A stretch of DNA of 64,000 bases. It comes from an uncultured Planctomycetia bacterium (GTDB taxonomy: Bacteria; Omnitrophota; Gorgyraeia; VGKH01; JBHPFN01). The translations under genes were made by a program, and so were the position numbers. This document shows positions 1 through 37,021 of this stretch, in pieces (within the stretch, counting starts at the first letter, position 1; each line of letters begins with the position of its first letter). Location: assembly GCA_964406665.1 (NCBI GenBank), contig CAYOSQ010000005.1, positions 21,929 to 85,928 of the forward strand, given 5' to 3'. A model generated the notes under the pieces. That model made no database searches. It was not told the DNA's origin and saw only the letters and a program-made list of their open reading frames with translations.

Positions 1-1
1 T

Positions 2-868: not shown

Positions 869-869
869 T

Positions 870-1652
870 ATGATAGAGCCACTTCTCAGTATCCAAAATT
901 TAGGCTTAAGTTTTTTCATAAATAGCAAAATCAAGAATATTGTAGAGGGGTTATCTCTAGATATTTATGAAAAAGAGATTGTAGCTCTTGTAGGTGGATC
1001 AGGCAGTGGTAAAACGCTTACAGGTCTTTCTATTTTGAAGTTACTTCCTCAGCAGGCAAAAGCTGCAGGTAAGATTATCTGGCAGGGAGTTGATTTAATG
1101 GAGTTGTCAGAGAAAAGAATGGGATTAATTAGAGGAAAAGAAATTAGCATGGTGTTTCAGGAGCCGTTAAGCAGCCTTAATCCTGTTTTTACCATAGGCT
1201 ATCAAATTGACGAAGTAGTTAAGCTTCATGCTAAAAAGAGAGGTAGAGACGTAAAAGAGTATTCAATTGAACTTCTCAATAAAGTTGGTATTCCTGATCC
1301 CAAAAAAACAATCGACGATTATCCTCATCAGCTTAGCGGTGGCATGCGTCAAAGGGCAATGATAGCTATGAGCATTGCGGCTAATCCTAGGCTGTTGATT
1401 GCTGATGAACCAACAAGTAATTTAGATGTAACTATACAGGCACAAATATTAGAACTATTTTCTAAATTAAAAGATGATTTAAATATCTCAATTATTTTAA
1501 TTACGCATGATTTAAGTATAGTTAAGCATTTATCGGACAGGGTTGCTGTTATGCATAAAGGAAAGATAGTTGAATGTGGCAAAACAGATGGTTTACTGGA
1601 AAATCCTCAACATTATTATACGCGTGATTTACTGGAAGCGGTGAAAATCTAA
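870..1652 (+). CDS. Oligopeptide/dipeptide ABC transporter ATP-binding protein (OppD/DppD-like)
   Basis: Walker A 'GGSGSGKT', ABC signature 'LSGGMRQR', Walker B 'LLIADEPTSNLD'. Translationally coupled to the permease upstream. Confidence 0.85.
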   Translation: MIEPLLSIQNLGLSFFINSKIKNIVEGLSLDIYEKEIVALVGGSGSGKTLTGLSILKLLPQQAKAAGKIIWQGVDLMELSEKRMGLIRGKEISMVFQEPLSSLNPVFTIGYQIDEVVKLHAKKRGRDVKEYSIELLNKVGIPDPKKTIDDYPHQLSGGMRQRAMIAMSIAANPRLLIADEPTSNLDVTIQAQILELFSKLKDDLNISIILITHDLSIVKHLSDRVAVMHKGKIVECGKTDGLLENPQHYYTRDLLEAVKI

Positions 1653-2605
1653 TGAGCAAAGTTGTTTTAGATTTAAAAAATGTCTGTAAAGATTTCTCAA
1701 TTAAAAGAGGAATTTTTAAGAGGTCTGCAGGTTGTATAAAAGCGGTTAACAATGTATCGTTTTCTCTGAGCGAAAAAGAAACTTTAGGATTGGTGGGGGA
1801 ATCTGGTTGTGGAAAAACTACATTAGCCAGGGCTATTATTCGGTTAATAGACTCCAATAAAGGAGAAATTGTTTTTAACGGTATTAACTTAGCCAAAATT
1901 TCTAAACGTAAAATTCGTCCCTTGCGTCAGCATATGCAGATAGTTTTTCAGGATCCATATACTAGTTTAGATCCATTATATAAAGTCAAAGATATTATTG
2001 CCGAGGCAATTTTATCTTTTTGGAAAATGGATCAACTGGTGGTTTTAGATAGGGTCAAGGAATTATTGGAATTGGTCAAGCTTCCTCCGGATGTACTGTA
2101 CCGTTATCCGCATGAGTTTAGTGGAGGAGAGCGTCAACGTATTGCTATAGCTCGAAGTTTAGCAACTAATCCTAAGCTGCTTATTTTAGATGAGGCAGTA
2201 TCTAGTCTTGATGTGGTAATTCAGTCTCAAATTATTAGGCTGTTGCTAGAATTGCAAGAGAAGTTAGGATTAACGTATTTATTTATTTCGCATAATTTAA
2301 GAGTTATCAGGGCAGTAAGCACGAAAATTGCTGTGATGTATTTAGGTAAAATTGTTGAAATGGCAGAAACTGAAGAATTGCTTAATCATAAATTACATCC
2401 TTATGCAGAAGCACTTTTTCTTGCTGCGATAGAGATGAAGTCTACGGTAGCTGAAACAGCAGAAATTAAAGAACAGAAAATAAAAGGTTGTCCGTATAGC
2501 CCTAGATGTAAGTTTGCCCAAAATATTTGTCGAGAAGAAGAGCCGGAATTAAAAGAAATCTCTGGCGGACATATGGTTGCTTGTCATTTTCCGCTTGGTA
2601 AATAA
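1652..2605 (+). CDS. Oligopeptide/dipeptide ABC transporter ATP-binding protein (OppF/DppF-like) with C-terminal oligopeptide-transporter Cys motif
   Basis: Walker A 'GESGCGKT', signature 'FSGGERQR', Walker B 'LLILDEAVSSLD'. C-terminal 'CPYSPRCKFAQNIC' extension is typical of OppF/DppF. Confidence 0.85.
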   Translation: MSKVVLDLKNVCKDFSIKRGIFKRSAGCIKAVNNVSFSLSEKETLGLVGESGCGKTTLARAIIRLIDSNKGEIVFNGINLAKISKRKIRPLRQHMQIVFQDPYTSLDPLYKVKDIIAEAILSFWKMDQLVVLDRVKELLELVKLPPDVLYRYPHEFSGGERQRIAIARSLATNPKLLILDEAVSSLDVVIQSQIIRLLLELQEKLGLTYLFISHNLRVIRAVSTKIAVMYLGKIVEMAETEELLNHKLHPYAEALFLAAIEMKSTVAETAEIKEQKIKGCPYSPRCKFAQNICREEEPELKEISGGHMVACHFPLGK

Positions 2606-2677
2606 GTTTGTAAATCATTAGATATATTCTTGAAAATAAAAATTTTATAGTATATAATAATCCTACTTTCCTAAGGA

Positions 2678-3142
2678 GTGCTTAAATTTATGTTAAGAAA
2701 AGCTAGGCTTGATGATGCAGATGTAATCAAATCTTTAATAGATTTTTATGCTAAAGAAGATCTTATGATTCCTCGTTCTCTTAACGAGATATACGAGAAC
2801 ATCAGGGATTTTTGGGTATACCAGGAAAATGACACTATTGTTGGTTGTTGTGCCCTGCACGTATTTGGCTGGGAAGGTTTAGCAGAAATAAAATCGTTCG
2901 CGGTTGATCAAGCACATCATAAAAAAGGCATCGGCAAAGAGTTAATCTCGTGTTGTTTAAAAGATGCGACAGAGCTAAGAATAAAAAAAATATTTGTTTT
3001 AACATACGTACCAGAGTTTTTTGAAAAGTTTGGTTTTTCCAGGGTGGATAAATCAATGTTCCCGCAGAAGATTTGGGCCGAGTGTTGCAACTGTCCTAAA
3101 TTTCCAGATTGTAAAGAAATTGCACTTATTAAGAAGTTATAA
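2678..3142 (+). CDS. GNAT family N-acetyltransferase (short ArgA-like amino-acid N-acetyltransferase)
   Basis: 154 aa. GNAT acetyl-CoA motif 'HHKKGIGKELI'. Resembles single-domain N-acetylglutamate synthases. A TTGAAA-17-TATAAT-like promoter precedes it at about 2628-2660. Confidence 0.55.
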   Translation: MLKFMLRKARLDDADVIKSLIDFYAKEDLMIPRSLNEIYENIRDFWVYQENDTIVGCCALHVFGWEGLAEIKSFAVDQAHHKKGIGKELISCCLKDATELRIKKIFVLTYVPEFFEKFGFSRVDKSMFPQKIWAECCNCPKFPDCKEIALIKKL

Positions 3143-3153
3143 AGGAGGAAGTA

Positions 3154-4311
3154 ATGGATTATATGTTGACTGAAGAACAGATAATGATTAAAGATTTATG
3201 TAAACAGATCGCCGATGAAAAGATTCGTCCGAAAGCTGCGGAATATGATCAAAGTGAACAGTTTCCCGCAGATATTATGAAGATACTGGCACAGTCAGAT
3301 CTTTTTGGGATTTTTGTCCCAGAAGAATACGGTGGAACCGGCGTAAATGTATTAAGTCTATGTCTGGCTACAGAAGAATTTTCTAAGGCCTGCGGAGGTA
3401 TCGCTGTTTGCTATGCTGCGTCTGCTTTGGGTACTTTTCCTATAATTCTTTTTGGGAATGAGGAGCAGAAGAAAAAATATCTACCACCTCTGGCAAAGGG
3501 AGAAAAGATTGCTGCCTTTGGAATAACAGAGCCTGCTGCAGGTTCTGATGCAAGTGCGATTCAAACCACTGCGAAGAAAGCTGGCGACCACTATATTTTA
3601 AATGGAACAAAACATTTTATTACAAATGGCGGCGATGCCGAGATATATGTTGTCATAGCTATGACAGATAAATCAAAAGGTCCGCGTGGTGCATCTGCAT
3701 TTATCGTTGAGAAAGGTACACCCGGTTTTGAATTCGGTAAAAAAGAAGATAAGATGGGTATACGTGCATCTTCTACTAGTGAGTTAATCTTTACTGATTG
3801 TAAGATCCCTAAGGAAAATCTTCTAGCCCGCGAAGGGATGGGTTTTATCGTAACAATGAAGACTTTTGATATGAGTCGTCCCGGAGTTGCTGCTCAAGCT
3901 TTAGGGATTGCTCAAGGTGCTCTTGATGAGGCGGTAAAATACGCCAAAGAGCGTGAGCAATTTGGTAAGAATATAGGAAACTTTCAGGGGATTCAATGGA
4001 TGCTTGCTGATATGGCAACAGAAGTAGAAGCCGCTAGAGCTCTTGTTTATTCGGTTGCCCGCATGCTTGATAATGGTAATACAAAAGTCGCTAAAGAATC
4101 AGCAATGGCAAAGATGTATGCGTCAGATGTTGCTATGCGCGTCTCTACAGATGCTGTTCAGATTCTTGGTGGTTATGGCTATATGAAAGATTATCCAGTC
4201 GAGAAGTATATGCGTGATGCTAAGATTACCCAGATTTATGAGGGGACTAATCAAATCCAAAGAAACATAATCGCATTAAATCTTTTTAAGGAGCTAGCTT
4301 CGAGAAAGTAA
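3154..4311 (+). CDS. Acyl-CoA dehydrogenase (short-chain/butyryl-CoA dehydrogenase-like)
   Basis: 385 aa with canonical ACAD blocks ('AFGITEPAAGSD', 'YEGTNQIQR', catalytic Glu near the C-terminus). RBS 'aaggaggaag' upstream. Confidence 0.9.
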   Translation: MDYMLTEEQIMIKDLCKQIADEKIRPKAAEYDQSEQFPADIMKILAQSDLFGIFVPEEYGGTGVNVLSLCLATEEFSKACGGIAVCYAASALGTFPIILFGNEEQKKKYLPPLAKGEKIAAFGITEPAAGSDASAIQTTAKKAGDHYILNGTKHFITNGGDAEIYVVIAMTDKSKGPRGASAFIVEKGTPGFEFGKKEDKMGIRASSTSELIFTDCKIPKENLLAREGMGFIVTMKTFDMSRPGVAAQALGIAQGALDEAVKYAKEREQFGKNIGNFQGIQWMLADMATEVEAARALVYSVARMLDNGNTKVAKESAMAKMYASDVAMRVSTDAVQILGGYGYMKDYPVEKYMRDAKITQIYEGTNQIQRNIIALNLFKELASRK

Positions 4312-4337
4312 ATTTATTGTATACCAGGTTATTAAAA

Positions 4338-4370
4338 GGCGTTTTGGCTGAATTACCAGAGCGCCTTTTT
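4338..4370 (+). terminator. Rho-independent terminator downstream of the acyl-CoA dehydrogenase
   Basis: GGCGTTTTGG...CCAGAGCGCC imperfect hairpin followed by TTTTT. Confidence 0.6.
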
Positions 4371-4452
4371 CATCTTGCCAAATTTACAAAAAAGATGTAA
4401 TATATTTATCTATTGAAGGTATCTTTTAGAGGAAATATAAAAAGGAGGAATC

Positions 4453-5007
4453 ATGGTATTTGGAATAGTTTTATTAGTACTTATACTGATTCTTATTGGA
4501 TGGTTTTTTGGAGTTTATAATTCATTAGTCAAGTTAAGGGTTAGGATTAAAAACGCTTGGTCGCAGATAGATGTTCAGCTTAAGCGTCGCCATGATCTTA
4601 TTCCTAATCTTGTAGAGACCGCTAAGGGATATATGGCACATGAGAAAGATACCCTTGAGAAAGTTATTAAGGCGCGTACTCAGGCAATTGATGCATCAAA
4701 TTTAAAGGATAAGGCTCAGGCTGAGAATTTTCTCACCCAGACTTTACGTTCATTGTTTGCTGTATCAGAGAGATATCCAGATCTTAAGGCAAACCAGAAT
4801 ATGTTAAAACTTCAGGAAGAGCTTACTTCAACGGAAAATAAGATTGCTTTTGCCCGGCAATATTATAACGACGAAGTTATGCGTTTTAATACTGCTATTC
4901 AGGTGGTGCCTAATAATATAGTCTCTGGCATGTGTAATTTTACTAAGGAAGAATTCTTCGAAATAGAAGATGCTTCGCAAAAAGAAACTCCTGAGGTAAA
5001 ATTCTAA
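4453..5007 (+). CDS. lemA: LemA family protein
   Basis: N-terminal TM helix followed by the LemA signature ('NSLVKLRVRIKNAWSQIDVQLKRRHDLIPNLVETAKGY'). Confidence 0.85.
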   Translation: MVFGIVLLVLILILIGWFFGVYNSLVKLRVRIKNAWSQIDVQLKRRHDLIPNLVETAKGYMAHEKDTLEKVIKARTQAIDASNLKDKAQAENFLTQTLRSLFAVSERYPDLKANQNMLKLQEELTSTENKIAFARQYYNDEVMRFNTAIQVVPNNIVSGMCNFTKEEFFEIEDASQKETPEVKF

Positions 5008-5033
5008 ATCCTTAAAACTTTTCTTAAAAACAT

Positions 5034-6698
5034 ATGCCTTTTTCCTTTATAGATATAGAAGAGAAAAAGAGCAGGCTGATATTTCTTGTATTTGCCTCTT
5101 TAATAGTTTTCTATTTTGCCACTGCCTGGCTTTTGGTTTTAGTGGTCAAAAATACCACGTTTCTTTATTACAGCAGTTCCAGAATAACGAAGTTTACTTT
5201 CCCTACAGCAAATCAAACATTCATAGCGTTAATAGTTGCATTTGTGGCCGGTTTGACTCACTGGGCATTTTCAACGCATAATCTTATCCAGAAAATCACC
5301 TCTTCGGTCGATGCTTATTTTGCAGATTCTAAGGATACGTATCATCAGTATTTAAAAAACATTGTAGATGAGGTTTCTGTTGCAGTAGGAGGGAGAAATA
5401 TTGATGCCTATGTTATCCCCTCGTCTGCAATGAATGCATTCTCAATCGCCGATTTTGAGGGTAATGCTGTAATCGGAGCAACAGAAGGTTTGCTTGCCCG
5501 TTTAAACAGGGCACAGATTGAAGCTGTAGTTGGGCATGAAGCTGCTCATATCGTAAGCGGTGATTGTCTTAACGCAACTTTAATATGTTCTTTATCTGAG
5601 CTTTACAGAGAATCATTCTCGAAATTATCTCAAGCAATAAGGGGTTCGCGTGGTAGAGGAGGTATACAGATAATGCCTGTTTTGTTAGTTCTTGGCATTA
5701 TGAATATTCTAAATAAATTATTAAATAGTTTCATTTCGCGACAGAGAGAATATCGTGCTGATGCAGTTGCTGTTAGGCTTACGCGAGACCCTCTTAGCCT
5801 TGCCCAAGCTCTTAAGATTATATCAAGTAAATGGAACGGTGCAGGTTTAAGCGGAGAAAACCTGGAGTCAATTTTCATTGTAAGCCCGAAATTAAATGCT
5901 CTTGATGAAAAAGATGGTTTAGGACCAGATCTTTTTTCTACTCATCCACCAGTAAGAAAAAGAATACAGGTACTTTTAGATATTGCTCATGAGGATGAAA
6001 AAACATTAGAAGAAAATATCAAGAATATGAGAAGGGCTTCTCCGGTTGCTAAAGCAGAATTCACAACTGATAAGCCAAAAGATAAAAAGAAATGGTTTGT
6101 TTTTAAAGAGAGTAAGTGGCAAGGTCCTTTTGGAATTCCAGAATTGAGAACACTGCCGGGTTTTTTACCTACTGATTGGATAAAGCTCGAAGGTGTAAAT
6201 GGCGTATCTGATGCATTTCAAGATAAAGATATTGCAGAGATTTTTGAAGAAAATAATAGTGCTGCAAATGTAGAAAAAACAGGATGTGCATGTCCACATT
6301 GTCATGTTGGCTTAGCTGAAATTAATTATGAGGGTGCGCCAGCTTTTAAGTGTCTGCATTGTGAAGGTGTTTTTGTTGAGCACAGTAAGATCCCACGCAT
6401 ATTAATACGTAAGGATAAGGCTTTTTCAAAAGAAGTTGAGGAGTTAGCCAATGCAGTACACAAAACAAAAAAGCCGACGTATAAAGATTTTGATAAACAT
6501 AAGGGAAGCAAAAGCTGGGTTATTGATTGCCCAAAATGCCATAAAAAAATGAAGAGGCAATATTTTGTTTATTCATATCCAGTAGAAATTGATCGCTGCT
6601 GGAGTTGTAGTGGGATTTGGTTTGATAAGCAGGAGCTGGAAGTCTTACAGTATATCTATGAATATAAAGATAAGTTTTTTTCCGGAAAGCAATTTTAA
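5034..6698 (+). CDS. M48-family zinc metallopeptidase (HtpX-like) with two C-terminal zf-TFIIB-type zinc-ribbon domains
   Basis: N-terminal TM helices. HExxH 'HEAAHI' with downstream 'STHPPVRKRI' as the third-ligand region. C-terminus has two CxxC...CxxC ribbons ('CPHCHVGL...CLHCEGVFVE' and 'CPKCHKKM...CWSCSGIWFDKQELE'). Confidence 0.7.
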   Translation: MPFSFIDIEEKKSRLIFLVFASLIVFYFATAWLLVLVVKNTTFLYYSSSRITKFTFPTANQTFIALIVAFVAGLTHWAFSTHNLIQKITSSVDAYFADSKDTYHQYLKNIVDEVSVAVGGRNIDAYVIPSSAMNAFSIADFEGNAVIGATEGLLARLNRAQIEAVVGHEAAHIVSGDCLNATLICSLSELYRESFSKLSQAIRGSRGRGGIQIMPVLLVLGIMNILNKLLNSFISRQREYRADAVAVRLTRDPLSLAQALKIISSKWNGAGLSGENLESIFIVSPKLNALDEKDGLGPDLFSTHPPVRKRIQVLLDIAHEDEKTLEENIKNMRRASPVAKAEFTTDKPKDKKKWFVFKESKWQGPFGIPELRTLPGFLPTDWIKLEGVNGVSDAFQDKDIAEIFEENNSAANVEKTGCACPHCHVGLAEINYEGAPAFKCLHCEGVFVEHSKIPRILIRKDKAFSKEVEELANAVHKTKKPTYKDFDKHKGSKSWVIDCPKCHKKMKRQYFVYSYPVEIDRCWSCSGIWFDKQELEVLQYIYEYKDKFFSGKQF

Positions 6699-6712
6699 CC
6701 AAGGGGAAGTGG

Positions 6713-7426
6713 ATGGATTTTACTCAAATGATTAATAATTTGATGACTTCAGAAGGGGGAAGGCAGCTTTTATTTTTTGTCGGTTTTGCAGTTTTAATTG
6801 TATTTATTGTTGCAACAAGAATTATAGGGGAAAAGAAAAGAAGAGAAGCAGTGAGCAATTTAGCCAGAAGGTTAGGCTTTTCTTATTCAAGTGAGTTCAT
6901 TGGAGATGTCGTAAGTTCATGTGGAAACTTTGCACTTTTTGGAAAAGGTCATTCAAAGAAAGCTTATAATGTTCTAAAAGGTTATAGTCAGGATATTTCT
7001 TGGACGATCTTTGACTATAAATACACGGTTGGCCATGGTAAGCATTCTCATACTTATAATCAAACAGTTGCCTCTGCCGAATTATCCGGAGTTAATTTTC
7101 CAAAGTTTTCTTTAGCTCCAGAATCATTTTTTCATAAACTTGGTGATGTTTTTGGTTCTAAAGATATTGATTTTAATACTCATCCTATGTTTTCTAAGAA
7201 ATATCTTTTAAAAGGTTCTGATGAGCAGGCCATTAGAAATATTTTTGTTTCACACATATTAAACTATTTTGAGCAAAAGACAAATGTTCATAATATTGAG
7301 GCAGATGGAGATAAGTTTGTAATTTATGGTTATTGTAAAAGAGTGAAACCAGAAGATTTTCAAAAGTTTTTGTTTGAGATTTCTGGAGCAGCACGTATGT
7401 TAACAAGCGCTGCTTCAGCTCAATAG
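6713..7426 (+). CDS. Hypothetical membrane-anchored protein (single N-terminal TM, DUF-like)
   Basis: ORF with good RBS 'aaggggaagtgg'. N-terminal TM segment. No recognisable catalytic motif. Confidence 0.4.
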   Translation: MDFTQMINNLMTSEGGRQLLFFVGFAVLIVFIVATRIIGEKKRREAVSNLARRLGFSYSSEFIGDVVSSCGNFALFGKGHSKKAYNVLKGYSQDISWTIFDYKYTVGHGKHSHTYNQTVASAELSGVNFPKFSLAPESFFHKLGDVFGSKDIDFNTHPMFSKKYLLKGSDEQAIRNIFVSHILNYFEQKTNVHNIEADGDKFVIYGYCKRVKPEDFQKFLFEISGAARMLTSAASAQ

Positions 7427-7437
7427 AGGGAGAGCTT

Positions 7438-8082
7438 ATGTCCGAGAAAAAATTTGATATTTCAGATGCAATAAGTTTCGGATGGGAAACGGTTACAAAA
7501 AATATTGGTTTTTTTATCGCAGTAATGCTGACTATAGGTGCAGTAGCTATACTTTCAAATGTTCTGATGTGGTTTTTGAAAGAGGAGCCCTATGCAATTA
7601 GAACGATTGTTAGCTTGTTGTTTTGGGTAGGTCAGACAATGATTGGCTTAGGATTAGCTAAGATTGCTTTAAAATTTTGTGATGGTGAGGAAGTAAAGTT
7701 TGAAGATTTATTTTCTTGTTTTCCTATGACGCTTAATTATATTGCCGGTATGTTTATTTTCGGTTTAATTGTTATGGGGGGATTTATTTTGTTGATTGTA
7801 CCTGGAATAATCTTCGCAATTCAGTTTCAATTTTGGTTTTTGTTTATTATTGATAAAGGACGTGGTCCAATAGAATCTCTTAAAATGAGTGCAGAAATTA
7901 CTGAAGGAGTTAAGCCGGATCTGTTTGTTTTTGGAATACTGCTGAGTATGATTAATTTTGTTGGTTTTATTTGTTTATTTGTCGGCTCAATAGTTACGAT
8001 TCCACTTGTTACACTTGCTCATGTTTTTGTTTTTCGACAATTGTTAAATTATAGTGGGTCTAAAGATACTCAGCTGGCATAA
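7438..8082 (+). CDS. Hypothetical polytopic membrane protein (possibly GDPD-membrane-domain/DUF975-like)
   Basis: Several hydrophobic helices, translationally close to neighbours, RBS 'gagggagag'. Confidence 0.35.
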   Translation: MSEKKFDISDAISFGWETVTKNIGFFIAVMLTIGAVAILSNVLMWFLKEEPYAIRTIVSLLFWVGQTMIGLGLAKIALKFCDGEEVKFEDLFSCFPMTLNYIAGMFIFGLIVMGGFILLIVPGIIFAIQFQFWFLFIIDKGRGPIESLKMSAEITEGVKPDLFVFGILLSMINFVGFICLFVGSIVTIPLVTLAHVFVFRQLLNYSGSKDTQLA

Positions 8083-8091
8083 AGGAGAGGG

Positions 8092-8283
8092 ATGTTCACA
8101 ATTCTAATTTTGAATTTGATTATTGCAGCTATAGGATTTTTTGCAACCGCTAATATAATAAAACCTACTTCACGTAGAGTTATTACCTGGATAGCTATTT
8201 TGATAGTATTGAGTGTTATTGAGTTTTTTGTTTTATCGAAACTGATCGTGGATAGTTATTCAGGAGTTAAATATATTAACTAG
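8092..8283 (+). CDS. Small two-helix membrane protein, hypothetical
   Basis: 63-aa ORF with RBS 'aaggagaggg' and two hydrophobic stretches. Confidence 0.3.
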   Translation: MFTILILNLIIAAIGFFATANIIKPTSRRVITWIAILIVLSVIEFFVLSKLIVDSYSGVKYIN

Positions 8284-8299
8284 ATAGTCAAAGACGTTT

Positions 8300-9055
8300 C
8301 TACTTGGCTTTTCCCTGATTTGCAACAGCCTCCATAGCTTTTTTTACTTTTTCCGGATCCCCCAAATAATAACGGTTAAGCGGCTTAAGATTTTCATCTA
8401 GCTCATATACTAGTGGCATGCCAGTAGGTATGTTAAGACTTACAATTTTTTCATCAGAAACATTATCTAGATATTTTACCAAAGCACGCAGGCTGTTTCC
8501 ATGGGCAGCGATGAGAACTTTTTTTCCTGATTTTATTGTTGGTGTAATAGTTTCATGCCAGTAAGGCAGGAATCTTGCTACAGTATCTTTTAAGCACTCT
8601 GTTAGAGGCGTGTCTTTTTCAGCAAGATCTTTGTATCTAGGGTCGTTACCGGGGAAACGCTCGTCTGTTTTCTCAAGGACAGGAGGAGGGGTATCATAGC
8701 TTCTTCTCCAGACAAGCACTTGTTCATCACCATATTTTTTTGCAGTCTCAGATTTATTTAGTCCCTGGAGAGCACCATAGTGTCTTTCATTTAAACGCCA
8801 GGAGCGCAATACTGGTATCCACATCAGGTCCATTTCTTCCAGGGTTATCCACAATGTCTTTATAGCTCTTTTTAGCACGGAAGTAAAAGCGATATCAAAT
8901 TCATAACCTTCTTTTTTTAATACTTGTCCGGATTCATGTGCTTCTTGGGTTCCTTTTTCAGATAGGCCAACGTCTGTCCAGCCGGTAAATCTGTTTTCTT
9001 TATTCCATGTGCTTTCACCATGACGCAAGAGTACTACTTTAATCATTTTTCCCAT
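8300..9055 (-). CDS. gpmA: 2,3-bisphosphoglycerate-dependent phosphoglycerate mutase
   Basis: Catalytic '[21 protein letters not shown]' histidine-phosphatase motif and overall dPGM length. Confidence 0.9.
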
Positions 9056-9261
9056 TTTTTCCTCCCAATAGAGTTTATTTCATTTAGTAGTGTTATTATA
9101 TAATAAATAATAATTATTACTATTATTTTTTCCTAAAAATATAAAAGATAACGCTTCCTTTATTTTCTCCACACCCCTTGAAAAGAGTCTATATTATGCT
9201 TTACTATATTATAGATAGACATATCCGAAAATTTCCTTTAGAATAAAGGAGACCTGTAGCT

Positions 9262-9360
9262 AAATTATTGGCAGGGGCAAACTTAGGGAAACCTAAGGAC
9301 GCAAAGTTTCGGGCCTAAAGAGAAGGATTCCAATGGCAGCCGAGCGTACCGAAAACGTGG
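9262..9360 (+). promoter_or_regulatory. c-di-GMP-I (GEMM) riboswitch aptamer
   Basis: Sequence 'GGCAGGGGCAAACUUAGGGAAACCUAAGGACGCAAAGUUUCGGGCCUAAAG...GCAGCCGAGCGUACCGA' matches the GEMM-I consensus nearly position by position. Matching blocks: GGGCAAAC, GNRA-capped P2 hairpin CUUAGG-GAAA-CCUAAG, GGACGCAAAG, CGGGCCUAAA, CAGCCG...UACCGA (compare the Vibrio Vc2 aptamer). Confidence 0.8.
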
Positions 9361-9385
9361 GAAAAATTATAAAAAATCTTTTAGA

Positions 9386-9416
9386 AGATTTAGCGCGTAA
9401 GTCTAAATTTTTTACT
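9386..9416 (+). terminator. Candidate riboswitch expression-platform terminator
   Basis: AGATTTAG-cgcgtaagt-CTAAATTT hairpin followed by a T-run. An overlapping alternative hairpin AATCTT/AAGATT sits immediately upstream (mutually exclusive pairing). Confidence 0.3.
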
Positions 9417-9474
9417 CTGTTTCTTTTTGGGAGCAGAGTTTTTATTTTGGCGAGAATTAAAAAAGGGGGAAGCA

Positions 9475-10776
9475 ATGTTTAGAAGAAAAAGAAGCAATAA
9501 TTCAGGTATATCTTTGGTAGAAATTTTGGTTACTGTTTTTATTGTTGTATTGCTATTATCTACAGCGGTAACAACACTTGTCAGAGGAGCTAGGTTAAGA
9601 GAGGTAGCTGATCAAAAGACAAGGGCAATATTAGATGGGCAAAGTGTTTTTGAAGCGATGCGCGAAATTGCTCAAAATGCTGGAATAAATGATTTGTACA
9701 GGTGCGGCGCATCTTTTCGTGCAAATGCATATGTTGATTTGAATCAAGTTTTAGGCGGTGCGTCACTTTTAGATGAGCAAATACGTATTTTTTATCCCAG
9801 TGGTGTTACGGCACGTCCATTGCATTGTAGGTTGCAGATTAGCTGGACAGATTTTCGCGGTCAAACCGTTGCAGAAACAATAGAAACGAAATTTTGGGAA
9901 TTGGTTGCAGTAACTCCTGATAATGGAAGCTGTGGCACCTGCTTCCTCGCCGGCACCCCTATCCTTATGGCTGATGGCTCAACTAAGGATATTGAAACAA
10001 TTAAGGTAGGAGATACTGTAATAGCCTTTGATCAAGAATCTGGTAAGAATAAATCTGATGAGGTAGTTGAGACATTCATTCATGAAGAAGATAGCTATCT
10101 TTTAATCAATAATCGCATTAAGGCAACATCCAACCACCCTGTATTTCATAAAGGAAGATGGGTAGATATCGGATTGCTTAACATAGGTGATGAATTAACT
10201 AAGGTAGATGGTTCTAAAGAAAAGATCACCAGCATAGAAAAGATCAAAGAACCTGTAATGGTATACAACCTTGAGGTTAACCCTTATCATACATATTATG
10301 CTGATAACATATTAGCTCATAATAAGGGCTGTCTATTACCAGGCACAACTATACTTATGGCTGATGGCACTAACAAGTTTATTGAAAATATAGTTACCGG
10401 GGATAAAGTAACCTCTTATGATGAAGAATCTAAGACCAAGTTAAAAGATACAGTTAAAGAAGTATTCATGCATGAGGTACAAGGATACCTGATAATCAAT
10501 GATAGCATTAAAGTAACAGCAGAACACCCCTTCTTCTCTAATGGTATATGGGTTAGAGCAAAAGATCTTAAAGAAGGAGATATATTACTTACTCAAGAAG
10601 GTAAAGAAGAAGCTATTACCAGCATAAAAGCTGTTGATAAGAAGATCGTCGTTTACAACATTGAAGTAAACCCATATCACAACTACTTTGCTAATGGATA
10701 TCTGGTGCATAATAAAAGTTTGCCACAGGTACCTGTTCCACCACCAGATCCACCAGGTGGAGGATATGGGAATTAG
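9475..10776 (+). CDS. Type IV pilin-like (pseudopilin) protein with two tandem C-terminal Hint / bacterial intein-like (BIL) domains
   Basis: RBS 'aaagggggaag'. Class III signal 'MFRRKRSNNSG|ISLVEILV' (Gly-1, Glu+5). A pilin globular region with a Cys pair follows. Then two ~135-aa repeats, each starting with Cys ('CFLAGTPILMADGS', 'CLLPGTTILMADGT'), containing TxxH ('TSNH', 'TAEH') and ending 'VNPYHxY...HN'. Pro-rich tail. Confidence 0.7.
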   Translation: MFRRKRSNNSGISLVEILVTVFIVVLLLSTAVTTLVRGARLREVADQKTRAILDGQSVFEAMREIAQNAGINDLYRCGASFRANAYVDLNQVLGGASLLDEQIRIFYPSGVTARPLHCRLQISWTDFRGQTVAETIETKFWELVAVTPDNGSCGTCFLAGTPILMADGSTKDIETIKVGDTVIAFDQESGKNKSDEVVETFIHEEDSYLLINNRIKATSNHPVFHKGRWVDIGLLNIGDELTKVDGSKEKITSIEKIKEPVMVYNLEVNPYHTYYADNILAHNKGCLLPGTTILMADGTNKFIENIVTGDKVTSYDEESKTKLKDTVKEVFMHEVQGYLIINDSIKVTAEHPFFSNGIWVRAKDLKEGDILLTQEGKEEAITSIKAVDKKIVVYNIEVNPYHNYFANGYLVHNKSLPQVPVPPPDPPGGGYGN

Positions 10777-10816
10777 AGCTTGAAAACTTTGAAGTATATA
10801 TTTTTGAAGTTATAGT

Positions 10817-11356
10817 TTGGAGATGGTTATGAGATTTATGTATACAACAAAAAAAGGATTTACTTTCATGGAAACTTTAGTTGCTACCTTGGTTACCACT
10901 GTTATGTCTGCAGTCGTGATAACCACGATAGTTTGTTTAATGAATTTCTTTTTTGGGGAAGTTGCCAATGCTGAACTAAAACGGAAGGCTCACCAGTCAT
11001 TATCAACAATTATCCAGGATTTAAGAACTGCTGAGCCTGATGGAGCTAATGGTATTGATGTTTTAAATGATGGTGATAACAATAAGATTACTGCACGACT
11101 TGCAGGTGGTTGGGATGCTAATGGTTTTCTTGTGTATTCTACTGATGATACTCATTATTGGTTAGATGGAGATGAACTGGTTAAAGACAATATTGATACT
11201 GGAGAACGTAGAGTTCTCTGTAATCTTGCTTCAAGATTTAACTGTACAGAATATGCTGAAGGTCATTATTCTATGACCTTAATTTTAACTAAGGATACTG
11301 TGTTGAAAACAATTACTTATACTGCTACTGAAAACTTTGGTGTAAGAAATGATTAG
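10817..11356 (+). CDS. Prepilin-type N-terminal cleavage/methylation domain protein (minor pilin-like)
   Basis: 'KKG|FTFMETLVATLV' class III signal with Glu+5 followed by a hydrophobic helix. Start could be at one of the in-frame Met codons 10817-10838. Confidence 0.6.
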   Translation: MEMVMRFMYTTKKGFTFMETLVATLVTTVMSAVVITTIVCLMNFFFGEVANAELKRKAHQSLSTIIQDLRTAEPDGANGIDVLNDGDNNKITARLAGGWDANGFLVYSTDDTHYWLDGDELVKDNIDTGERRVLCNLASRFNCTEYAEGHYSMTLILTKDTVLKTITYTATENFGVRND

Positions 11357-11371
11357 TTTATAATGCAAAAT

Positions 11372-11567
11372 TTGAAAGGGTAGTTAAAATGCTAGCTATG
11401 AGATTACGCAAAAATGGACTTGCTATGATATTGAGTTTGGTGCTGACACTTGTTGTGTCTTGGGTAACAGTACCTATAATCATGACAGCTTTAGGGCATA
11501 CTCAAAATTCCAAAATAACAACCACTGCAATTGAAGCTAGAGAGGTAGCTGAAGCCGGAATAGCTGA
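11372..11567 (+). repeat. 196-bp direct repeat (RBS + 5' coding end), copy 1; partner at 13254..13449
   Basis: Identical to 13254..13449 except for 1 mismatch (11546 t vs c). The bodies downstream are only about 50% identical at protein level. Confidence 0.9.
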
Positions 11568-13207
11568 GGATTAAGGACGGCTTTACTAATAATTCTCTTC
11601 CTGCCAACTTTCCTAAAAACCCTAGTGAAACCGGCTCTAGTTTTTCTTATAATATCTGGCCAGGTGGAGAAGCCTTTCCAGTAGGAAGTGGTTCTGAATA
11701 TTCAGTAAATGTAGAATTAACCTTGGCTACTAATGACTTCGTTGAAGGAATAGGTGGAAACGGAGTGTATCGCTATATTTTAACCTCTAGCGGTACTGTC
11801 CCAACTATGGGTGGAGAGGTTAAGAAAACTGTTCAGGCAGGAGTAACATTTGATTATTTCTTTGGTGAGAATGTTAGGATGTGCGAAACTGACGAAGGTC
11901 CAGATTGCACAAGAGATCTAGGACATTCTTATTTCAATAATCAAAAGTCAATTATTCATTTAGATACAACTAACATAGCTGAGGGACGCTATCTTCGTCC
12001 AGGCAGATATAACCTATCATATTTCGGAAGGTATGGAGAAGGTCAGGGACCGGGTGCTGAGGAGGACCATGCTCGTCAAAGTGCTGAGGACCTTGTGCTT
12101 CTTTTTGATGAATATAGATTAGAGTTTCCAGAATGGCGGGATGCTAACGGTGATCACCTCGGACGCGATCCAGGAGGTGGAGTGCAGTATGAAGAATTTT
12201 TAGTTGACTACAATTTACAGGATCATAACGAACAATTTTTTCAGTATATAGATGAAAATGGTACAAATAACGAAGACAGCCCACCCTTCAATTTTGAGGT
12301 TTTAAGCCGTGATCCAGAAAACGAAGATGATGTGTTTATCGCAGAATTGAACTGCAGATTTAATTCTTCGCAATCAGCCGGCTGTGAAGACGATCTTGAT
12401 TTAGAACCTGGTGCACCCTGTACCCAATTTTGTGATGCTACTGAAGCAGCATTTGGAAGTGGTTCTTGGCCAGATTATCAGGAAGCATGTATGAACGCTT
12501 GCTATAGAAACAGTAGTGAGGTTTCATTTTCTTTTCAAGATGTTCATCCTGATTCAGAGGCGCATGTTCGTTGCTCGACTCCTGATGTATGCTTGAGACA
12601 TTGCTCTCATAACTATCAGTGGAATTATTATGATTCAACATGTCGTCAGCAGTGCGATACTACACATGGTTTTCTCCCTAGCAGAAAACAGCCCCAGGTG
12701 TGGATGCAATGTATGGTAGACTGCACTAATATTGAAGAATCTTTTGTTGCAAGTGAGTGTAATCAGCTATGTGATAATCCAGATTTATGTTTTGATTACT
12801 TTGCAGGAGATTATCAGCGTTATGCTAGAACCGATGATCCCCAGCAAGGTTTTCCTGGAGCACCAATACAGTTAAATTCTGAATGCTTTCAATTGTGTTC
12901 AGGAGTAACTAATATTTGGGGTTGTCGTGAGAGATGTGACAAAAAATTCTTTAGACGAGACACAACAGGAGATATTGTTATTTCTGCAATGAATAGAGTT
13001 GTTAAGGATAAATATGGCAAGTTTTATTGGCATGATGAAGACGATGATAATTCTTGTCATTATCCGCCTTGCGAACCTGCAACTGGTGGAAGTGTACATT
13101 TTGGTGATGGTACTTCACTTGAAATAGGTTTTGTTCTGAATATAGAGCAAGATCAAAGAATTGTAATAGTAGATTTTCAGTGGTTAGAAGTTGGTGGGGA
13201 TTATTAG
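11389..13207 (+). pseudogene. PilX_N-type large cysteine-rich pseudopilin-like protein, frameshifted paralog of 13271..15112
   Basis: N-terminal 62 codons are nearly identical to the downstream gene. An 11-nt deletion relative to copy 2 at about 11567 produces a stop ('GIAED*'). Homology continues in another frame (ORF 11723..13207, TTG as first codon), including all CX3C motifs. Confidence 0.55.
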
Positions 13208-13253
13208 TTTTTTGATTAAATGGATTCTGGTAATTAAATATAACAGCACTGAA

Positions 13254-13449
13254 TTGAAAGGGTAGTTAAAATGCTAGCTATGAGATTACGCAAAAATGGA
13301 CTTGCTATGATATTGAGTTTGGTGCTGACACTTGTTGTGTCTTGGGTAACAGTACCTATAATCATGACAGCTTTAGGGCATACTCAAAATTCCAAAATAA
13401 CAACCACTGCAATTGAAGCTAGAGAGGCAGCTGAAGCCGGAATAGCTGA
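13254..13449 (+). repeat. 196-bp direct repeat, copy 2
   Basis: See 11372..11567. Confidence 0.9.
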
Positions 13450-15112
13450 AGCCTTGATGTGGATTAAGAATGGTTTTACTTATAATACTCTTCCTGCCAA
13501 CTTTCCCAAAAACCCATCCGAAGTCGGCCCTGGCTTTGCTTACGATATCTGGCCAGGTGGAGAAGCCTTTCCTGCAGGAGGAGATAATAAGTATGCTGTA
13601 AATGTAGAATTAACCTTGGCTACTAATAATTTCATTGAAGGAGTAGATGGAAATGGAGAGTATCGCTATATTCTAACCTCTAGCGGTACTGTTCCGACTC
13701 TAGGTGGAGAAATAGAAAAAACTGTTCAGGCAGCAGTAACTTTTGATTATTATTATGGTGATGATATCGATATTTGTACAGTAGGTTCAGGACAAGACTG
13801 CACTAGAGATTTAGGTTATGAATATGTAAATGATAGAAAGCCGATAATTCATCTTGATACAACTAATGAAGCAGAAGGTCGTTATGTGCGTCCTGGTTTT
13901 TATAGCATAAGCTATAACGGTGAGTATGATATTGATCAAGGAGCCGGAGCAGAAACAACTGGACCTGATAGAGAATATGCTATGTATGGTTCAGAAAATA
14001 TGGTTGTATATCTTGATGAAGCAGCTCTTCTTTTTCCTGAGTGGAGAGATTTAGATGGAAATGGACGTGCTTCTTATGGTGGAGAGATTAGTCCTGAAGA
14101 ATTTCTTGTAAAGCCATGGTTGCAAGATTATACGGTTCATTTGTTTGAAAACATTGATGCAAATGGTACAAATGACGACCCTCCATTTAATTTTGAGGTT
14201 ATTGAAAGGGATCCTGAGAATCCTGAAGATAGGTTTATAATTGAATTATTTTGCGAGTCTGATAGCCTCCCAATAGGAAGTTGTTCCGGAGACCTTGATC
14301 TTGAGTCAGGTTCTACATGTTCCAATTTCTGTGAAGCAGTAGAGGATGCATATACAACCTTGGCATGGCCAGACTATGAAGCAGCATGTATGGCTGCCTG
14401 TGGAAGAAATGTTCTTGTAGAATATTCTTTTCAAGATGAACATCCAGATTCAGAGGCTAATGTTCGCTGTGGTGACAGTCAAATATGTTTGATTTATTGC
14501 GCCCACAGCTATCAATGGAATTATTACGATTCTTATTGTCGTCAAATATGTGATGTACATTATAATTTTGATCCTAATGCTCCTAATTATGGTCTTAGGC
14601 AGTCTCGAGATTGGAATGAGTGCATGGTTGATTGCTCAGATTTTATTTATGTAACTCCGGGATTCGAGTGTCAAAATTGGTGCGATGATCATGAGTCTTG
14701 TATGGATTTCTTTAGTGAAGAATATCAGATGAATGCGACAGAAGACAATCCAGCTCAATTTATTCCTGCAGTTGATCCAAGACAATTCATGTCGCAATGC
14801 GATAGAATGTGTAAAAGTGTAGATAATATTGGAGAATGCCGCAGCAGCTGCGATAGAAGATTTTTCCGTCAAGATGTTACAGGCGATATTGTTATAACTT
14901 TAATGAATAAATTGGCTAAAGAGAAACGTAAGAGGTTTCATTGGAATTCAGCAGACGATAATAGCTATGATTGTGAGTGGCCATGTGAACCAATAACTGC
15001 AGGTAGCGTTCATTTCGGAGATGCTGAGGGTACGGCTTTTGAGCTTCAGATAAATGATGATCTTAGAATAATTTTGAAGGATTTTCAGTGGATAGAAATA
15101 CCAAATGAATAA
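13271..15112 (+). CDS. PilX_N-domain pseudopilin-like protein with large cysteine-rich C-terminal region (putative pilus-tip/adhesin component)
   Basis: 'RLRKNG|LAMILSLVLTLVV' prepilin-like signal lacking Glu+5 (as in GspK/PilX), then 'AIEAREAAEAGIAEA' typical of PilX_N. Nine CX3C motifs (CSNFC, CMAAC, CLIYC, CRQIC, CMVDC, CQNWC, CDRMC, CRSSC, CEWPC). RBS 'gaaagggtag'. Confidence 0.65.
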   Translation: MLAMRLRKNGLAMILSLVLTLVVSWVTVPIIMTALGHTQNSKITTTAIEAREAAEAGIAEALMWIKNGFTYNTLPANFPKNPSEVGPGFAYDIWPGGEAFPAGGDNKYAVNVELTLATNNFIEGVDGNGEYRYILTSSGTVPTLGGEIEKTVQAAVTFDYYYGDDIDICTVGSGQDCTRDLGYEYVNDRKPIIHLDTTNEAEGRYVRPGFYSISYNGEYDIDQGAGAETTGPDREYAMYGSENMVVYLDEAALLFPEWRDLDGNGRASYGGEISPEEFLVKPWLQDYTVHLFENIDANGTNDDPPFNFEVIERDPENPEDRFIIELFCESDSLPIGSCSGDLDLESGSTCSNFCEAVEDAYTTLAWPDYEAACMAACGRNVLVEYSFQDEHPDSEANVRCGDSQICLIYCAHSYQWNYYDSYCRQICDVHYNFDPNAPNYGLRQSRDWNECMVDCSDFIYVTPGFECQNWCDDHESCMDFFSEEYQMNATEDNPAQFIPAVDPRQFMSQCDRMCKSVDNIGECRSSCDRRFFRQDVTGDIVITLMNKLAKEKRKRFHWNSADDNSYDCEWPCEPITAGSVHFGDAEGTAFELQINDDLRIILKDFQWIEIPNE

Positions 15113-15139
15113 TTTAAAGAAATAAAAAAAGTTAAGTTT

Positions 15140-15173
15140 AGCGTTTTGACATGTTGTCAAAACGCTTTTTTTT
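15140..15173 (+). terminator. Strong rho-independent terminator ending the pilin-like operon
   Basis: Perfect hairpin AGCGTTTTGACA-tg-TGTCAAAACGCT followed by TTTTTTT. Confidence 0.8.
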
Positions 15174-15174
15174 G

Positions 15175-15202
15175 TTGACTAAACAAATAGTTTTGATAGA
15201 AT
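15175..15202 (+). promoter_or_regulatory. Sigma70-type promoter for etfBA
   Basis: TTGACT - 16 nt - TAGAAT immediately upstream of etfB. Confidence 0.45.
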
Positions 15203-15211
15203 AGCTCCATT

Positions 15212-15991
15212 ATGGATATTATAGTATGCATAAAACAGGTACCTGATACCACTGATGTTCGCATAGATCCGATGACTAACACCTTGATTCGAGAAGGTGT
15301 ACAGTCAATAATAAATCCTTTTGATATGTATGCAATTGAGGAAGGTATTCAGCTTAAAGAGCGTTTTGGTGGAAACGTTATTGTGGTTACCATGGGTCCT
15401 CCTCAGGCAGAAGCTGCCTTAAGAGAAGCAATTAGCTTAGGGGCGGATGAGGGAATTTTAGTTAGTGACCGCGCTTTTGCCGGAAGCGACACTTGGGCAA
15501 CTAGCTATACTTTAGCAGCTGCAATTAAGAAGATTGGAGGCTTTGATTTGATTATTTGCGGAAAACAAGCCTCAGACGGAGATACTGCACAGGTTGGGCC
15601 GGGAATTGCAGCTCATTTAGACTTACCACAGGTTACCTATGTAAAGAAAGTTGAAAATATCGATGAGAAACATGCTAAGGTCGAGCGCATGACAGAAGAG
15701 GGATATGAGGTTGTCGAGACACCGCTGCCATGTTTGTTAACTGTTGTAAAAGAGATTAACGAGCCAAGGCTTCCTTCTTTGAAGGGGATGATGCGTTCTA
15801 AAAAAGCTGAAATAAAGAAATTAATAAAAGACGACTTGGATGTTGATGAAGAAGGCTTAGGATTAAATGGTTCCCCTACTCAAGTAGTTAAGATTTTTAC
15901 TCCACCTCCCAGGGAGGGCGGACAGATGTTAGAAGGGGAAGTTTCTGAAGTTGCCAAAAAATTAGTCGAAGCTTTGAAAAACGATATATAA
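15212..15991 (+). CDS. etfB: Electron transfer flavoprotein beta subunit
   Basis: 'MDIIVCIKQVPDT' N-terminus. Full-length EtfB/FixA similarity. Confidence 0.9.
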   Translation: MDIIVCIKQVPDTTDVRIDPMTNTLIREGVQSIINPFDMYAIEEGIQLKERFGGNVIVVTMGPPQAEAALREAISLGADEGILVSDRAFAGSDTWATSYTLAAAIKKIGGFDLIICGKQASDGDTAQVGPGIAAHLDLPQVTYVKKVENIDEKHAKVERMTEEGYEVVETPLPCLLTVVKEINEPRLPSLKGMMRSKKAEIKKLIKDDLDVDEEGLGLNGSPTQVVKIFTPPPREGGQMLEGEVSEVAKKLVEALKNDI

Positions 15992-15993
15992 AA

Positions 15994-17193
15994 ATGTCTA
16001 TTGGAATAATTCTAGAAAAATGTACTGGCTGTACCCTATGCGTTAAAGCTTGTCCTTTTGATGCTATTAAGATTGAAAACAAAAAAGCGATTATCGATTT
16101 AGATAAATGTACGCTTTGCGGAGCTTGTGTTGAAGTTTGTAAATTTGATGCAATTTTTCTAGAGAAAGAAACAAAACCAAAAGAAGATATTGTTGATGAT
16201 TCTAAAGGAGTTTGGGTTTTTGCCGAGCAGAAAAAAGGTGTTGTTCAGTCAGTTGCTTTTGAACTTTTAGGAAAAGCCCGGGAACTTGCCGATAAGCTTA
16301 ATACAGAAGTAGCTGCGGTTTTATTAGGGGATGGCGTTGCAAAACAGGCAGATGAGTTAATTCATCGTGGAGCAGATAAAGTTTATTTAGTGGAAGCCAA
16401 AGAGCTTAAAAATTTCCAGGATGAGCCTTACACAGAGGTACTTGTTAAGTTGATCCAGAAATACAAACCCAACATTTTATTAAGTGGAGCTACTTCAATT
16501 GGCAGGTCTCTCATAGCTCGTGTGGCAATAAATATTAAAGCCGGCTTGACCGCAGATTGTACTGGATTAGATATTGATCCTGAAAAAAACATTTTACTTC
16601 AAACCCGTCCAGCCTTTGGTGGAAATATTATGGCTACAATCATAAGCCCAAATTACCGTCCGCAAATGGCAACAGTAAGACATAAAGTAATGAAGGAGGC
16701 CCAGCCAGATAAATCTCGCAAGGGAGAAGTGATAAAAGAAAGTTTTGATAAGAAAGTTTTAGTTTCTCGTACCAAGGTTTTAGATATTGTTGATGATATA
16801 ACATCTGCTGTCAATTTAACAGAAGCAGATATTATTGTTTCTGGAGGAAGAGGAATAAGGGAAGCTAAGAACTTTGCGCTTATTGAAGAGTTAGCAAAAG
16901 TTCTTGGAGCTGCAGTGGGTGCATCTCGCGCTACTGTTGATGCCGGTTGGATTCCTTATTCTCATCAGGTTGGTCAGACTGGAAGAACAGTTTGTCCAAA
17001 AATTTATATTGCCTGTGGAATTTCCGGACAGATTCAACATTTAGTTGGAATGCAGTCATCAAAGATTATTGTTGCAATCAATAGTGACCCCAGTGCTCCT
17101 ATTTTTAAAGTTGCCACTTACGGTATAGTAGGAGATGTTTTTGAAGTTGTCCCTGCCTTAACTAAGAAGTTCAAAGAAGTCCTCAAGAAGTAA
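15994..17193 (+). CDS. etfA: Electron transfer flavoprotein alpha subunit with N-terminal 2x[4Fe-4S] ferredoxin domain (FixB-like)
   Basis: Two CxxCxxCxxxCP motifs ('CTGCTLCVKACP', 'CTLCGACVEVCK') followed by an EtfA core with FAD-binding C-terminal domain ('IVSGGRGI', 'YIACGISGQIQH'). Confidence 0.9.
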   Translation: MSIGIILEKCTGCTLCVKACPFDAIKIENKKAIIDLDKCTLCGACVEVCKFDAIFLEKETKPKEDIVDDSKGVWVFAEQKKGVVQSVAFELLGKARELADKLNTEVAAVLLGDGVAKQADELIHRGADKVYLVEAKELKNFQDEPYTEVLVKLIQKYKPNILLSGATSIGRSLIARVAINIKAGLTADCTGLDIDPEKNILLQTRPAFGGNIMATIISPNYRPQMATVRHKVMKEAQPDKSRKGEVIKESFDKKVLVSRTKVLDIVDDITSAVNLTEADIIVSGGRGIREAKNFALIEELAKVLGAAVGASRATVDAGWIPYSHQVGQTGRTVCPKIYIACGISGQIQHLVGMQSSKIIVAINSDPSAPIFKVATYGIVGDVFEVVPALTKKFKEVLKK

Positions 17194-17326
17194 TCTGCAC
17201 AAATAATTTCTTAAAATATCCTTAAATATTTTCTGTAATTAAATGTATTACTATATCAATATATTGTATATGTTGACATTTTTTGACACAATATGTTGAA
17301 ACTAGTAAATTTATGAAAAAAAATGC

Positions 17327-17355
17327 TTGACATCTGTATCTATATGTCATAATAT
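17327..17355 (+). promoter_or_regulatory. Sigma70-type promoter upstream of the HTH/ACP genes, embedded in ATATGT-containing repeats
   Basis: TTGACA - 17 nt - TAATAT. The flanking region carries repeated 'ATATGTTGA(C/A)A' and 'ATATGT' motifs. Confidence 0.45.
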
Positions 17356-17363
17356 GTAATCAA

Positions 17364-17540: not shown

Positions 17541-17551
17541 GGGAGGAAAAA

Positions 17552-17809: not shown

Positions 17810-17842
17810 AAAATTCTTTAAGCTCTTTAGAAAGGAGTTTCC

Positions 17843-36998: not shown

Positions 36999-37021
36999 CA
37001 AATTTAGGAAAAAATAGTAAA

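Follow-up and report, generated by a model that had tools for sequence, protein, structure and literature searches.

Riboswitches of the c-di-GMP-I class, their terminator-type outputs and their link to pilus genes are already known. The type example of Rfam family RF01051, Vc2 of Vibrio cholerae, has been reported to lie upstream of tfoY and to work as an OFF switch, in part via RNA stability (bioRxiv 10.1101/617340). Cd1 of Clostridioides difficile is a transcriptional OFF switch placed before flagellar genes, and its aptamer and terminator folds coexist (PMC9262584). The pilM riboswitch of Geobacter metallireducens belongs to the GEMM-Ib type, has 3'3'-cGAMP as its ligand and is an ON switch with transcriptional output located before pilus-related genes; in pilM the aptamer and the terminator are mutually exclusive (PMC9262584). 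Bc1 of Bacillus thuringiensis carries two typical rho-independent terminators 28 bp apart, of which the first unfolds with c-di-GMP while the second remains intact and hides the response; it shows that a strong second terminator can leave a c-di-GMP-I riboswitch unresponsive (PMC11218506). Omnitrophota have no cultured members, and they are believed to attach to host cells by means of type IV pili (PMC10066038). The main paper on Omnitrophota genomics mentions neither riboswitches nor Hint pilins (PMC10066038), and a full-text literature search returned no paper centred on a c-di-GMP riboswitch in this group. Here we describe such an element in Omnitrophota DNA, analysed within a continuous stretch of 64,000 nt, which we call the window, together with the operon behind it and the related leaders found at other loci.

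The whole 64 kb window was scanned against Rfam with covariance models (cmscan), the gathering score of RF01051 being 35 bits. This gave a match to RF01051 of 68.2 bits (E 3.1e-11) covering model positions 1-87 of 87. At the gathering score no second or tandem aptamer was found in the 64 kb, and this match is the sole riboswitch in the Rfam scan. The preliminary description had called a GEMM-I riboswitch at this place, proposing its Infernal score against the gathering threshold as the check; the call is upheld by a full-length match above that threshold, and the sequence blocks that had been listed, including a hairpin capped by a GNRA loop and the linker GGACGCAAAG, were all found. The conserved blocks GGCAAAC, GACGCAAAG and CAGCC agree with the consensus in the cmscan alignment, where G9276, A9303 and C9340 correspond to upper-case, that is, highly conserved, consensus residues. 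We take the G before GCAAAC, the A in GACGCAAAG and the C in CAGCC to be the counterparts of the ligand-pocket positions G20, A47 and C92 of Vc2, and presumably the residue directly before GCAAAC (in Vc2 numbering) decides between a preference for c-di-GMP and one for cGAMP. Since this residue is G9276 and not A, and since the best clan match is RF01051, the predicted ligand is c-di-GMP rather than cGAMP. Two neighbouring identities were considered and rejected: GEMM-Ib (3'3'-cGAMP) by the G at the pocket position, and the c-di-GMP-I-GGC variant (RF03167) by the clan match.

In the same alignment, the second hairpin of the aptamer carries a receptor-like CCUAAA / AAUGG internal loop and has two non-canonical positions at its tip. 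The closing helix, as seen in a fold of 9262-9358, is formed by UUGG 9268-9271 and CCGA 9349-9352 and has 4 bp including one G-U; past a mismatch it gains two A-U pairs. The helix of the related leaders described below has 6-7 bp, as in CUUGUUG/CAACAAG. The window element shares with Vc2 the two-hairpin layout, the GNRA first loop, the three conserved blocks and the site in the 5' leader, and it differs from Vc2 in its Omnitrophota host, in the length of the closing helix, in an extra 5' leader hairpin and in the presence of a terminator. Judged by its sequence, the element is a genuine, ordinary class-I c-di-GMP riboswitch aptamer, for which ligand binding is predicted. The coordinates of the leader and of the operon are collected in Table 1.

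Table 1. Features of the riboswitch leader and of the operon behind it, in window coordinates.
Feature	Position	Strand	Description
Promoter	9178..9205	+	-35 TTGAAA 9178-9183, 16-nt spacer, TGC-TTTACT -10 (9200-9205)
5' leader hairpin	9236..9252	+	UCCUUUA-GAA-UAAAGGA, -5.3 kcal/mol
c-di-GMP-I aptamer	9266..9353	+	RF01051 full-length match
Aptamer first hairpin	9282-9297		6 bp CUUAGG/CCUAAG, GAAA loop (GNRA tetraloop)
Linker between aptamer hairpins	9297-9306		GGACGCAAAG
Aptamer second hairpin	9305-9347		aligns to the model, posterior probabilities near 1
HA, first AU-rich hairpin of the preliminary description	9374..9391	+	AAAUCUU-UUAG-AAGAUUU, -3.4 kcal/mol
HB, second hairpin of the preliminary description	9383..9413	+	-7.5 kcal/mol; -9.4 kcal/mol with flanks
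Intrinsic terminator	9414..9448	+	stem 9414-9424 / 9429-9439, loop UUUU, tail UUUUAUUUU
RBS and start codon	9462..9477	+	RBS AAAGGGGG 9462-9469 and ATG 9475-9477, from sequence
First gene	9475..10776	+	433-aa pilin-like protein with two tandem Hint domains (Pfam)
Second gene	10817..11356	+	small pilin-like protein (KKGFTFMETLVA), 179 aa; weak ComGF-pilin N-terminal match, E 0.005
Frameshifted paralogue of last gene	11389..13207	+	11-nt deletion near 11568, giving 61-aa and 494-aa ORFs
Last gene	13271..15112	+	613-aa cysteine-rich protein, hydrophobic N-terminus; no Pfam family
Operon-end terminator	15140..15176	+	12-pair stem, then TTTTTTTTGTT

The aptamer belongs to a unit of promoter, aptamer, terminator, RBS and genes that forms a five-ORF operon (9475-15112) with observed boundaries. 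The start codon of the first gene is the first ATG in the frame of ORF 9427-10776 and lies 26 nt past the terminator. In keeping with the Hint-pilin cluster named in the preliminary description, the product of this gene is a fusion of a pilin-like protein with Hint domains. PT-HINT is matched with 144.8 bits in two stretches, each Hint domain extending from a Cys to a His-Asn, and the N-terminus has the prepilin motif G|ISLVE, with an N_methyl score of 18.1 bits that is below the cut-off of 21.2. All of 13 homologues keep C156, H282 and N283, and nearly all keep E16, the pilin Glu; the named homologues come nearly all from Candidatus Omnitrophota. The residue after each His-Asn is Lys, so that the Hint domains have no splicing nucleophile, and only a 19-aa proline-rich tail is found past the second one. 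Autocleavage or thioester chemistry at the pilin C-terminus is conceivable.

The frameshifted paralogue and the last gene show 51% identity over 503 aligned positions in BLASTP, and the deletion is seen in the alignment of their DNA. The first about 210 nt of these tandem paralogues (11389-13207 and 13271-15112), including the RBS, are about 99% identical, and beyond them the identity is only that of 51% in protein. Such a pattern resembles gene conversion at the 5' end or an exchange of cassettes; alternatively, the first copy is a pseudogene. Directly past the operon terminator, and ahead of etfB, there is a promoter-like TTGACT-N16-TAGAAT with TG before the -10 (15175-15202).

We searched 167 fetched loci, numbered with the prefix L, with a covariance model made from three aptamers and confirmed the matches with Rfam. 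Seven other loci have an RF01051 aptamer, with scores of 37.6-61.6 bits that are all exceeded by that of the window. An eighth locus, L089 (3221-3306, GC-rich), matches RF03167 best, with 60.5 bits where the gathering score is 59, and is located ahead of a Hint-protein cluster; being a different variant, it was left out of the six supporting loci. At all eight loci the aptamer lies on the coding strand and is followed by a terminator, found at the same place in every leader, and then by a Hint-protein gene or cluster. The first gene combines a pilin-like N-terminus with a Hint domain at six of them (L006, L007, L008, L011, L092 and L120), and at L088 its product has FG-GAP repeats and a Hint domain at the C-terminus; the genomes to which L007, L008 and L011 belong are named Candidatus Omnitrophota. 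The pairing of this riboswitch with a Hint-pilin gene is therefore recurrent, as it is found at no fewer than six further loci besides the window. A promoter TTGAAA-N16-TATACT with TG(C) before the -10 can be aligned in L006 and L007 and is visible in L008, L011, L092 and L120, and the promoter of L088 is TTGAAA-N17-CATACT. The six leaders have the promoter layout, the order of aptamer, terminator and RBS, and the Hint-pilin first gene in common with the window. They differ from it in that the window is longer on both sides of the aptamer, by about 30 nt on the 5' side and about 45 nt on the 3' side, and in that the window terminator is not a copy of the first hairpin. In the leader alignment the 5' leader hairpin of the window is missing from the shorter leaders of the relatives. 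L092 also carries, directly 5' of its full aptamer at about 3725-3785, a truncated GEMM-like element (CGTTGAAAAGGGTAAGCCCCGTTGGAAATAATGGGGC...) that may be left over from a tandem arrangement.

Among full-length orthologues of the protein the closest have 42-43% identity, and both orthologue loci that were scanned, L002 and L004, lie inside type IV pilus operons and have no riboswitch. When the window leader was compared by blastn with the 167 fetched loci only L001, from a second sample, SAMN10231901, matched it, being 100% identical over the 175 nt present on its contig; this sole close relative of the platform offers no sequence changes from which covariation could be read. The Hint-pilin of L001 (1-3558, compared with window 9306-12900) is 94% identical, and the genes downstream of it differ, with products of 272 aa and more than 331 aa in place of the 179-aa protein and the cysteine-rich paralogues of the window. 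Comparison of these two sequences suggests a variable cargo behind a fixed leader.

The six related leaders have a platform of a distinct kind. Their terminators (L006 1875-1903, L007 4551-4580, L008 3485-3515 and L011 226-251, and those in the L092 and L120 leaders) are near copies of the first hairpin of the aptamer, the 3' core being identical in 6-7/7 positions to the 3' strand of that hairpin. The 5' core of the terminator pairs in 7/7 positions with the same strand of the first hairpin, giving an antiterminator of 7-11 bp; the duplexes so formed range from -13.0 to -17.8 kcal/mol, and their p values against shuffles are 0.0005-0.04 per locus. In L092 changes on both sides keep the pairing (AGAUGGG : CCCAUCU versus GGGUGGG : CCCAUCC). 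Furthermore, when the transcripts of L006, L007, L008 and L011 are cut before the 3' arm of the terminator, the minimum-energy fold opens the first hairpin and pairs it with the 5' arm of the terminator in 4/4 cases. By this pairing analysis the loop and the 3' strand of the first hairpin, and not the closing helix, serve as the antiterminator strand. Because an aptamer locked by its ligand would block such an antiterminator, we infer that the six related leaders are OFF switches by design. The c-di-GMP riboswitch literature that was examined holds no description of a platform in which the terminator is a copy of the first hairpin.

For the window itself, the terminator scan combined with folding gave a hairpin at 9414-9439 with 11 pairs, -13.7 kcal/mol and the tail TTTTATTTTG (U4AU4), which is the sole terminator call in the leader region. 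Only two sites with at least 11 pairs exist in window positions 1-20000, this one and 15140-15166, and weak terminator-like matches in these first 20 kb are as frequent as expected from shuffles (11 observed, 11.4 expected). The element of the preliminary description ended at 9426, inside this hairpin, and the real terminator had been overlooked. Transcription attenuation, which that description had suggested, keeps its place as the most likely output, but its assignment to the pair of AU-rich hairpins finds no support in the form given. No nucleotide belongs to both the aptamer and the terminator, and the minimum-energy fold contains the two together. The probability of the terminator is 0.96 with or without the aptamer forced, in an equilibrium ensemble, which leaves room for a kinetic antiterminator; consequently, in this model the terminator does not respond to the ligand. 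Compared with shuffles, the complete leader has no better fold (z = -0.9).

A strand able to block the terminator was looked for among six candidate partners of its 5' arm, and against shuffles all of them gave p values above 0.1. The junction GGCAGGG pairs with -8.3 kcal/mol (p 0.11-0.14), the 5' leader AAAGGAGAC with -7.8 kcal/mol (p 0.23-0.30), the tip of the second hairpin with -7.0 kcal/mol (p 0.14-0.66), the strand after the closing helix with -4.5 kcal/mol (p 0.85) and the A-rich linker with -2.0 kcal/mol (p 0.43-0.60). The pairing used by the relatives, between the 3' strand of the first hairpin and the 5' arm of the terminator, reaches -4.3 kcal/mol in the window (p 0.44), and the same first-hairpin pairing tried with HB is at chance level with -3.1 kcal/mol.

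Together, these observations point to a class-I c-di-GMP riboswitch that probably regulates the Hint-pilin operon via premature termination at 9414-9448, with a leaning to OFF. RNA polymerase would start near 9212, the start predicted from the TTGAAA-N16-TTTACT promoter, and c-di-GMP would bind the aptamer at 9266-9353; the ligand would lock the aptamer, so that the terminator would form and the operon would be silenced. We infer that this terminator is the regulated element. As to polarity, the balance tips towards OFF, since the coexistence of aptamer and terminator is a trait of Cd1 and not of pilM, and since the six related leaders have an OFF design. The likeness to Cd1 extends to the absence of any aptamer-terminator overlap and to a terminator that is the thermodynamic end state, so that an antiterminator would need to act kinetically (PMC9262584). 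The antiterminator of Cd1, however, is defined and invades the binding pocket, whereas none above chance was found in the window, and the genes controlled by Cd1 are flagellar and those of the window pilin-like. With pilM the window shares the aptamer fold before pilus-related genes and the transcriptional output, and differs from it in the coexistence of its two folds and in having G and not A before GCAAAC. Several points speak against the preferred reading: no pairing that would block the terminator rises above chance, the terminator has the same probability in both aptamer states, the closing helix has only 4 bp, and Bc1 is a precedent for an unresponsive switch (PMC11218506).

The preliminary description had located control further upstream, with HB and its U-run (9383-9413) as the regulated terminator and HA as the antiterminator. 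In an extended version of the same model, c-di-GMP would free GCUAAAUU (9259-9266) to pair with the 5' arm of HB, GAUUUAGC (9387-9394), HB would unfold, and a weak first terminator would thereby be switched ON by the ligand, in the sense of more read-through. We consider control at HB rather unlikely. The two hairpins do exist (HA pairs 9374-9380 with 9385-9391), and they are mutually exclusive as described because both use 9383-9391; the U-run is also real (9408-9413). Both hairpins are weak, however, and in the best fold the U-run sits in the 3' arm of HB and not in a free tail, so that it is consumed in the stem; without it the core stem has only -2.7 kcal/mol. HB has about two G-C pairs, that is, fewer than 3, and was not called by the terminator scan. 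As the main working terminator, HB was rejected on stem strength and on the scan criteria, and the assignment of antiterminator and terminator to HA and HB is thus unsupported as described, with a strong terminator directly following.

A ligand-dependent change nevertheless exists in the model, and it is the only one. When the aptamer is forced in a transcript that ends at 9400, the probability of HA falls from 0.53 to 0.16 and that of the pairing 9259-9266 : 9387-9394 rises from 0.0 to 0.50. This shift occurs early in transcription. The pairing concerned has 8 bp and -8.8 kcal/mol, and its GCUAAAUU strand directly abuts the closing helix on the 5' side; against shuffles its p value is about 0.002-0.007 for a 13-nt partner chosen beforehand and 0.45, not significant, when the whole upstream leader is allowed. 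After 9413 has been transcribed HB stands at 0.82-0.97 with and without the aptamer forced, and an effect at HB would be masked, since the strong terminator directly downstream would stop transcripts regardless of HA and HB. Bc1, whose first terminator unfolds with c-di-GMP, is a precedent for a weak-strong dual terminator (PMC11218506). Like that of Bc1, the platform in the window is long and AU-rich, and in it a weak hairpin and U-run are followed by a strong terminator, the upstream element being ligand-sensitive and the downstream one staying folded. Unlike the two terminators of Bc1, HB fails the terminator criteria and abuts the strong terminator, and there is no sequence relationship between the two platforms. 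In the preferred reading, termination at 9414-9448, the two hairpins may still play a part: HA and HB probably work either as a relay that is sensitive to the ligand or as a weak first terminator upstream of the strong one.

Improbable, in our view, is an ON switch acting at the strong terminator itself. According to this explanation the ligand would free AAACGUGGG (9353-9361) to pair with CUCUGUUU (9415-9422) and so block the terminator; in the free state AACGU would be held by a small hairpin, 9344-9347 / 9355-9358, until the ligand pulls 9344-9347 into the aptamer. This small hairpin recurs in several folds, the pairing AAACG-GGG : CUC-UGUUU around HB is the minimum-energy fold of the fragment 9352-9428 (-10.5 kcal/mol versus -9.4 kcal/mol for HB alone), and c-di-GMP commonly turns pili and adhesins on (PMC9262584). 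However, the pairing nets only about 1 kcal/mol and does no better than chance (p 0.85), in the ensemble it has a probability of 0.00-0.01 with and without the aptamer forced, and the related leaders of homologous genes appear to be built as OFF switches. Little credence is given, likewise, to a decayed or masked switch, whose aptamer would bind c-di-GMP in front of a strong terminator that works as a constitutive attenuator, with little response unless another factor intervenes. The absence of an antiterminator above chance would fit such a state, as would the unchanged terminator probability of 0.96 and a platform that lacks the conserved antiterminator of the relatives and has about 60 extra AU-rich nt, and Bc1 behaves in this way experimentally (PMC11218506). 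On the other hand, the aptamer outscores those of all relatives and has its conserved blocks intact, the leader is identical in the second sample despite the divergence of the protein to 94% identity, and an operon that is always terminated should decay. Translational control, alone or in addition, seems very unlikely. It would require that the 5' arm of the terminator, UUUCUUUUU, pairs with the A/G-rich RBS region AAAAAGGGG and sets ribosome access on read-through transcripts. The complementarity of these two segments is visible in the sequence, and Bc1 combines transcription and translation control via its second terminator (PMC11218506), but the RBS is unpaired in all folds to 9480, and the candidate pairing would hold three G-U pairs.

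If the preferred reading, premature termination at 9414-9448, is set beside the related loci, a wider picture can be drawn tentatively: c-di-GMP-I riboswitches might define a conserved regulon of Hint-domain modular pilins in host-dependent nanobacterial Omnitrophota, in which the switching strand of most leaders would be the tetraloop hairpin and the terminator its copy, and of which the window would be a derived, weak-strong tandem form. The aptamer alone adds little, and it is the context that gives a direct, testable link from c-di-GMP to a surface structure in Omnitrophota. The related leaders lend themselves well, as a clean set from nature, to the study of antiterminators that derive from the tetraloop hairpin of an aptamer, and the window leader would be a second natural weak-strong tandem platform resembling that of Bc1, with the reservation that HB itself fails the terminator criteria. 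What makes the locus moderately interesting is its regulon together with the platform designs seen in the relatives, the riboswitch class not being new.

The neighbours of the operon that were examined include no type IV pilus machinery and are mostly housekeeping genes (gpmA, etfBA, smc, dnaG, rpoD). A gene for a GAF-GGDEF diguanylate cyclase (21131-22324, minus strand; GGDEF 164 bits) follows the riboswitch operon at a distance of 6 kb downstream, and its product is a possible local source of the ligand. The only tRNA gene in the window is that of tRNA-Ala (anticodon CGC), at 36926-36999 on the plus strand.
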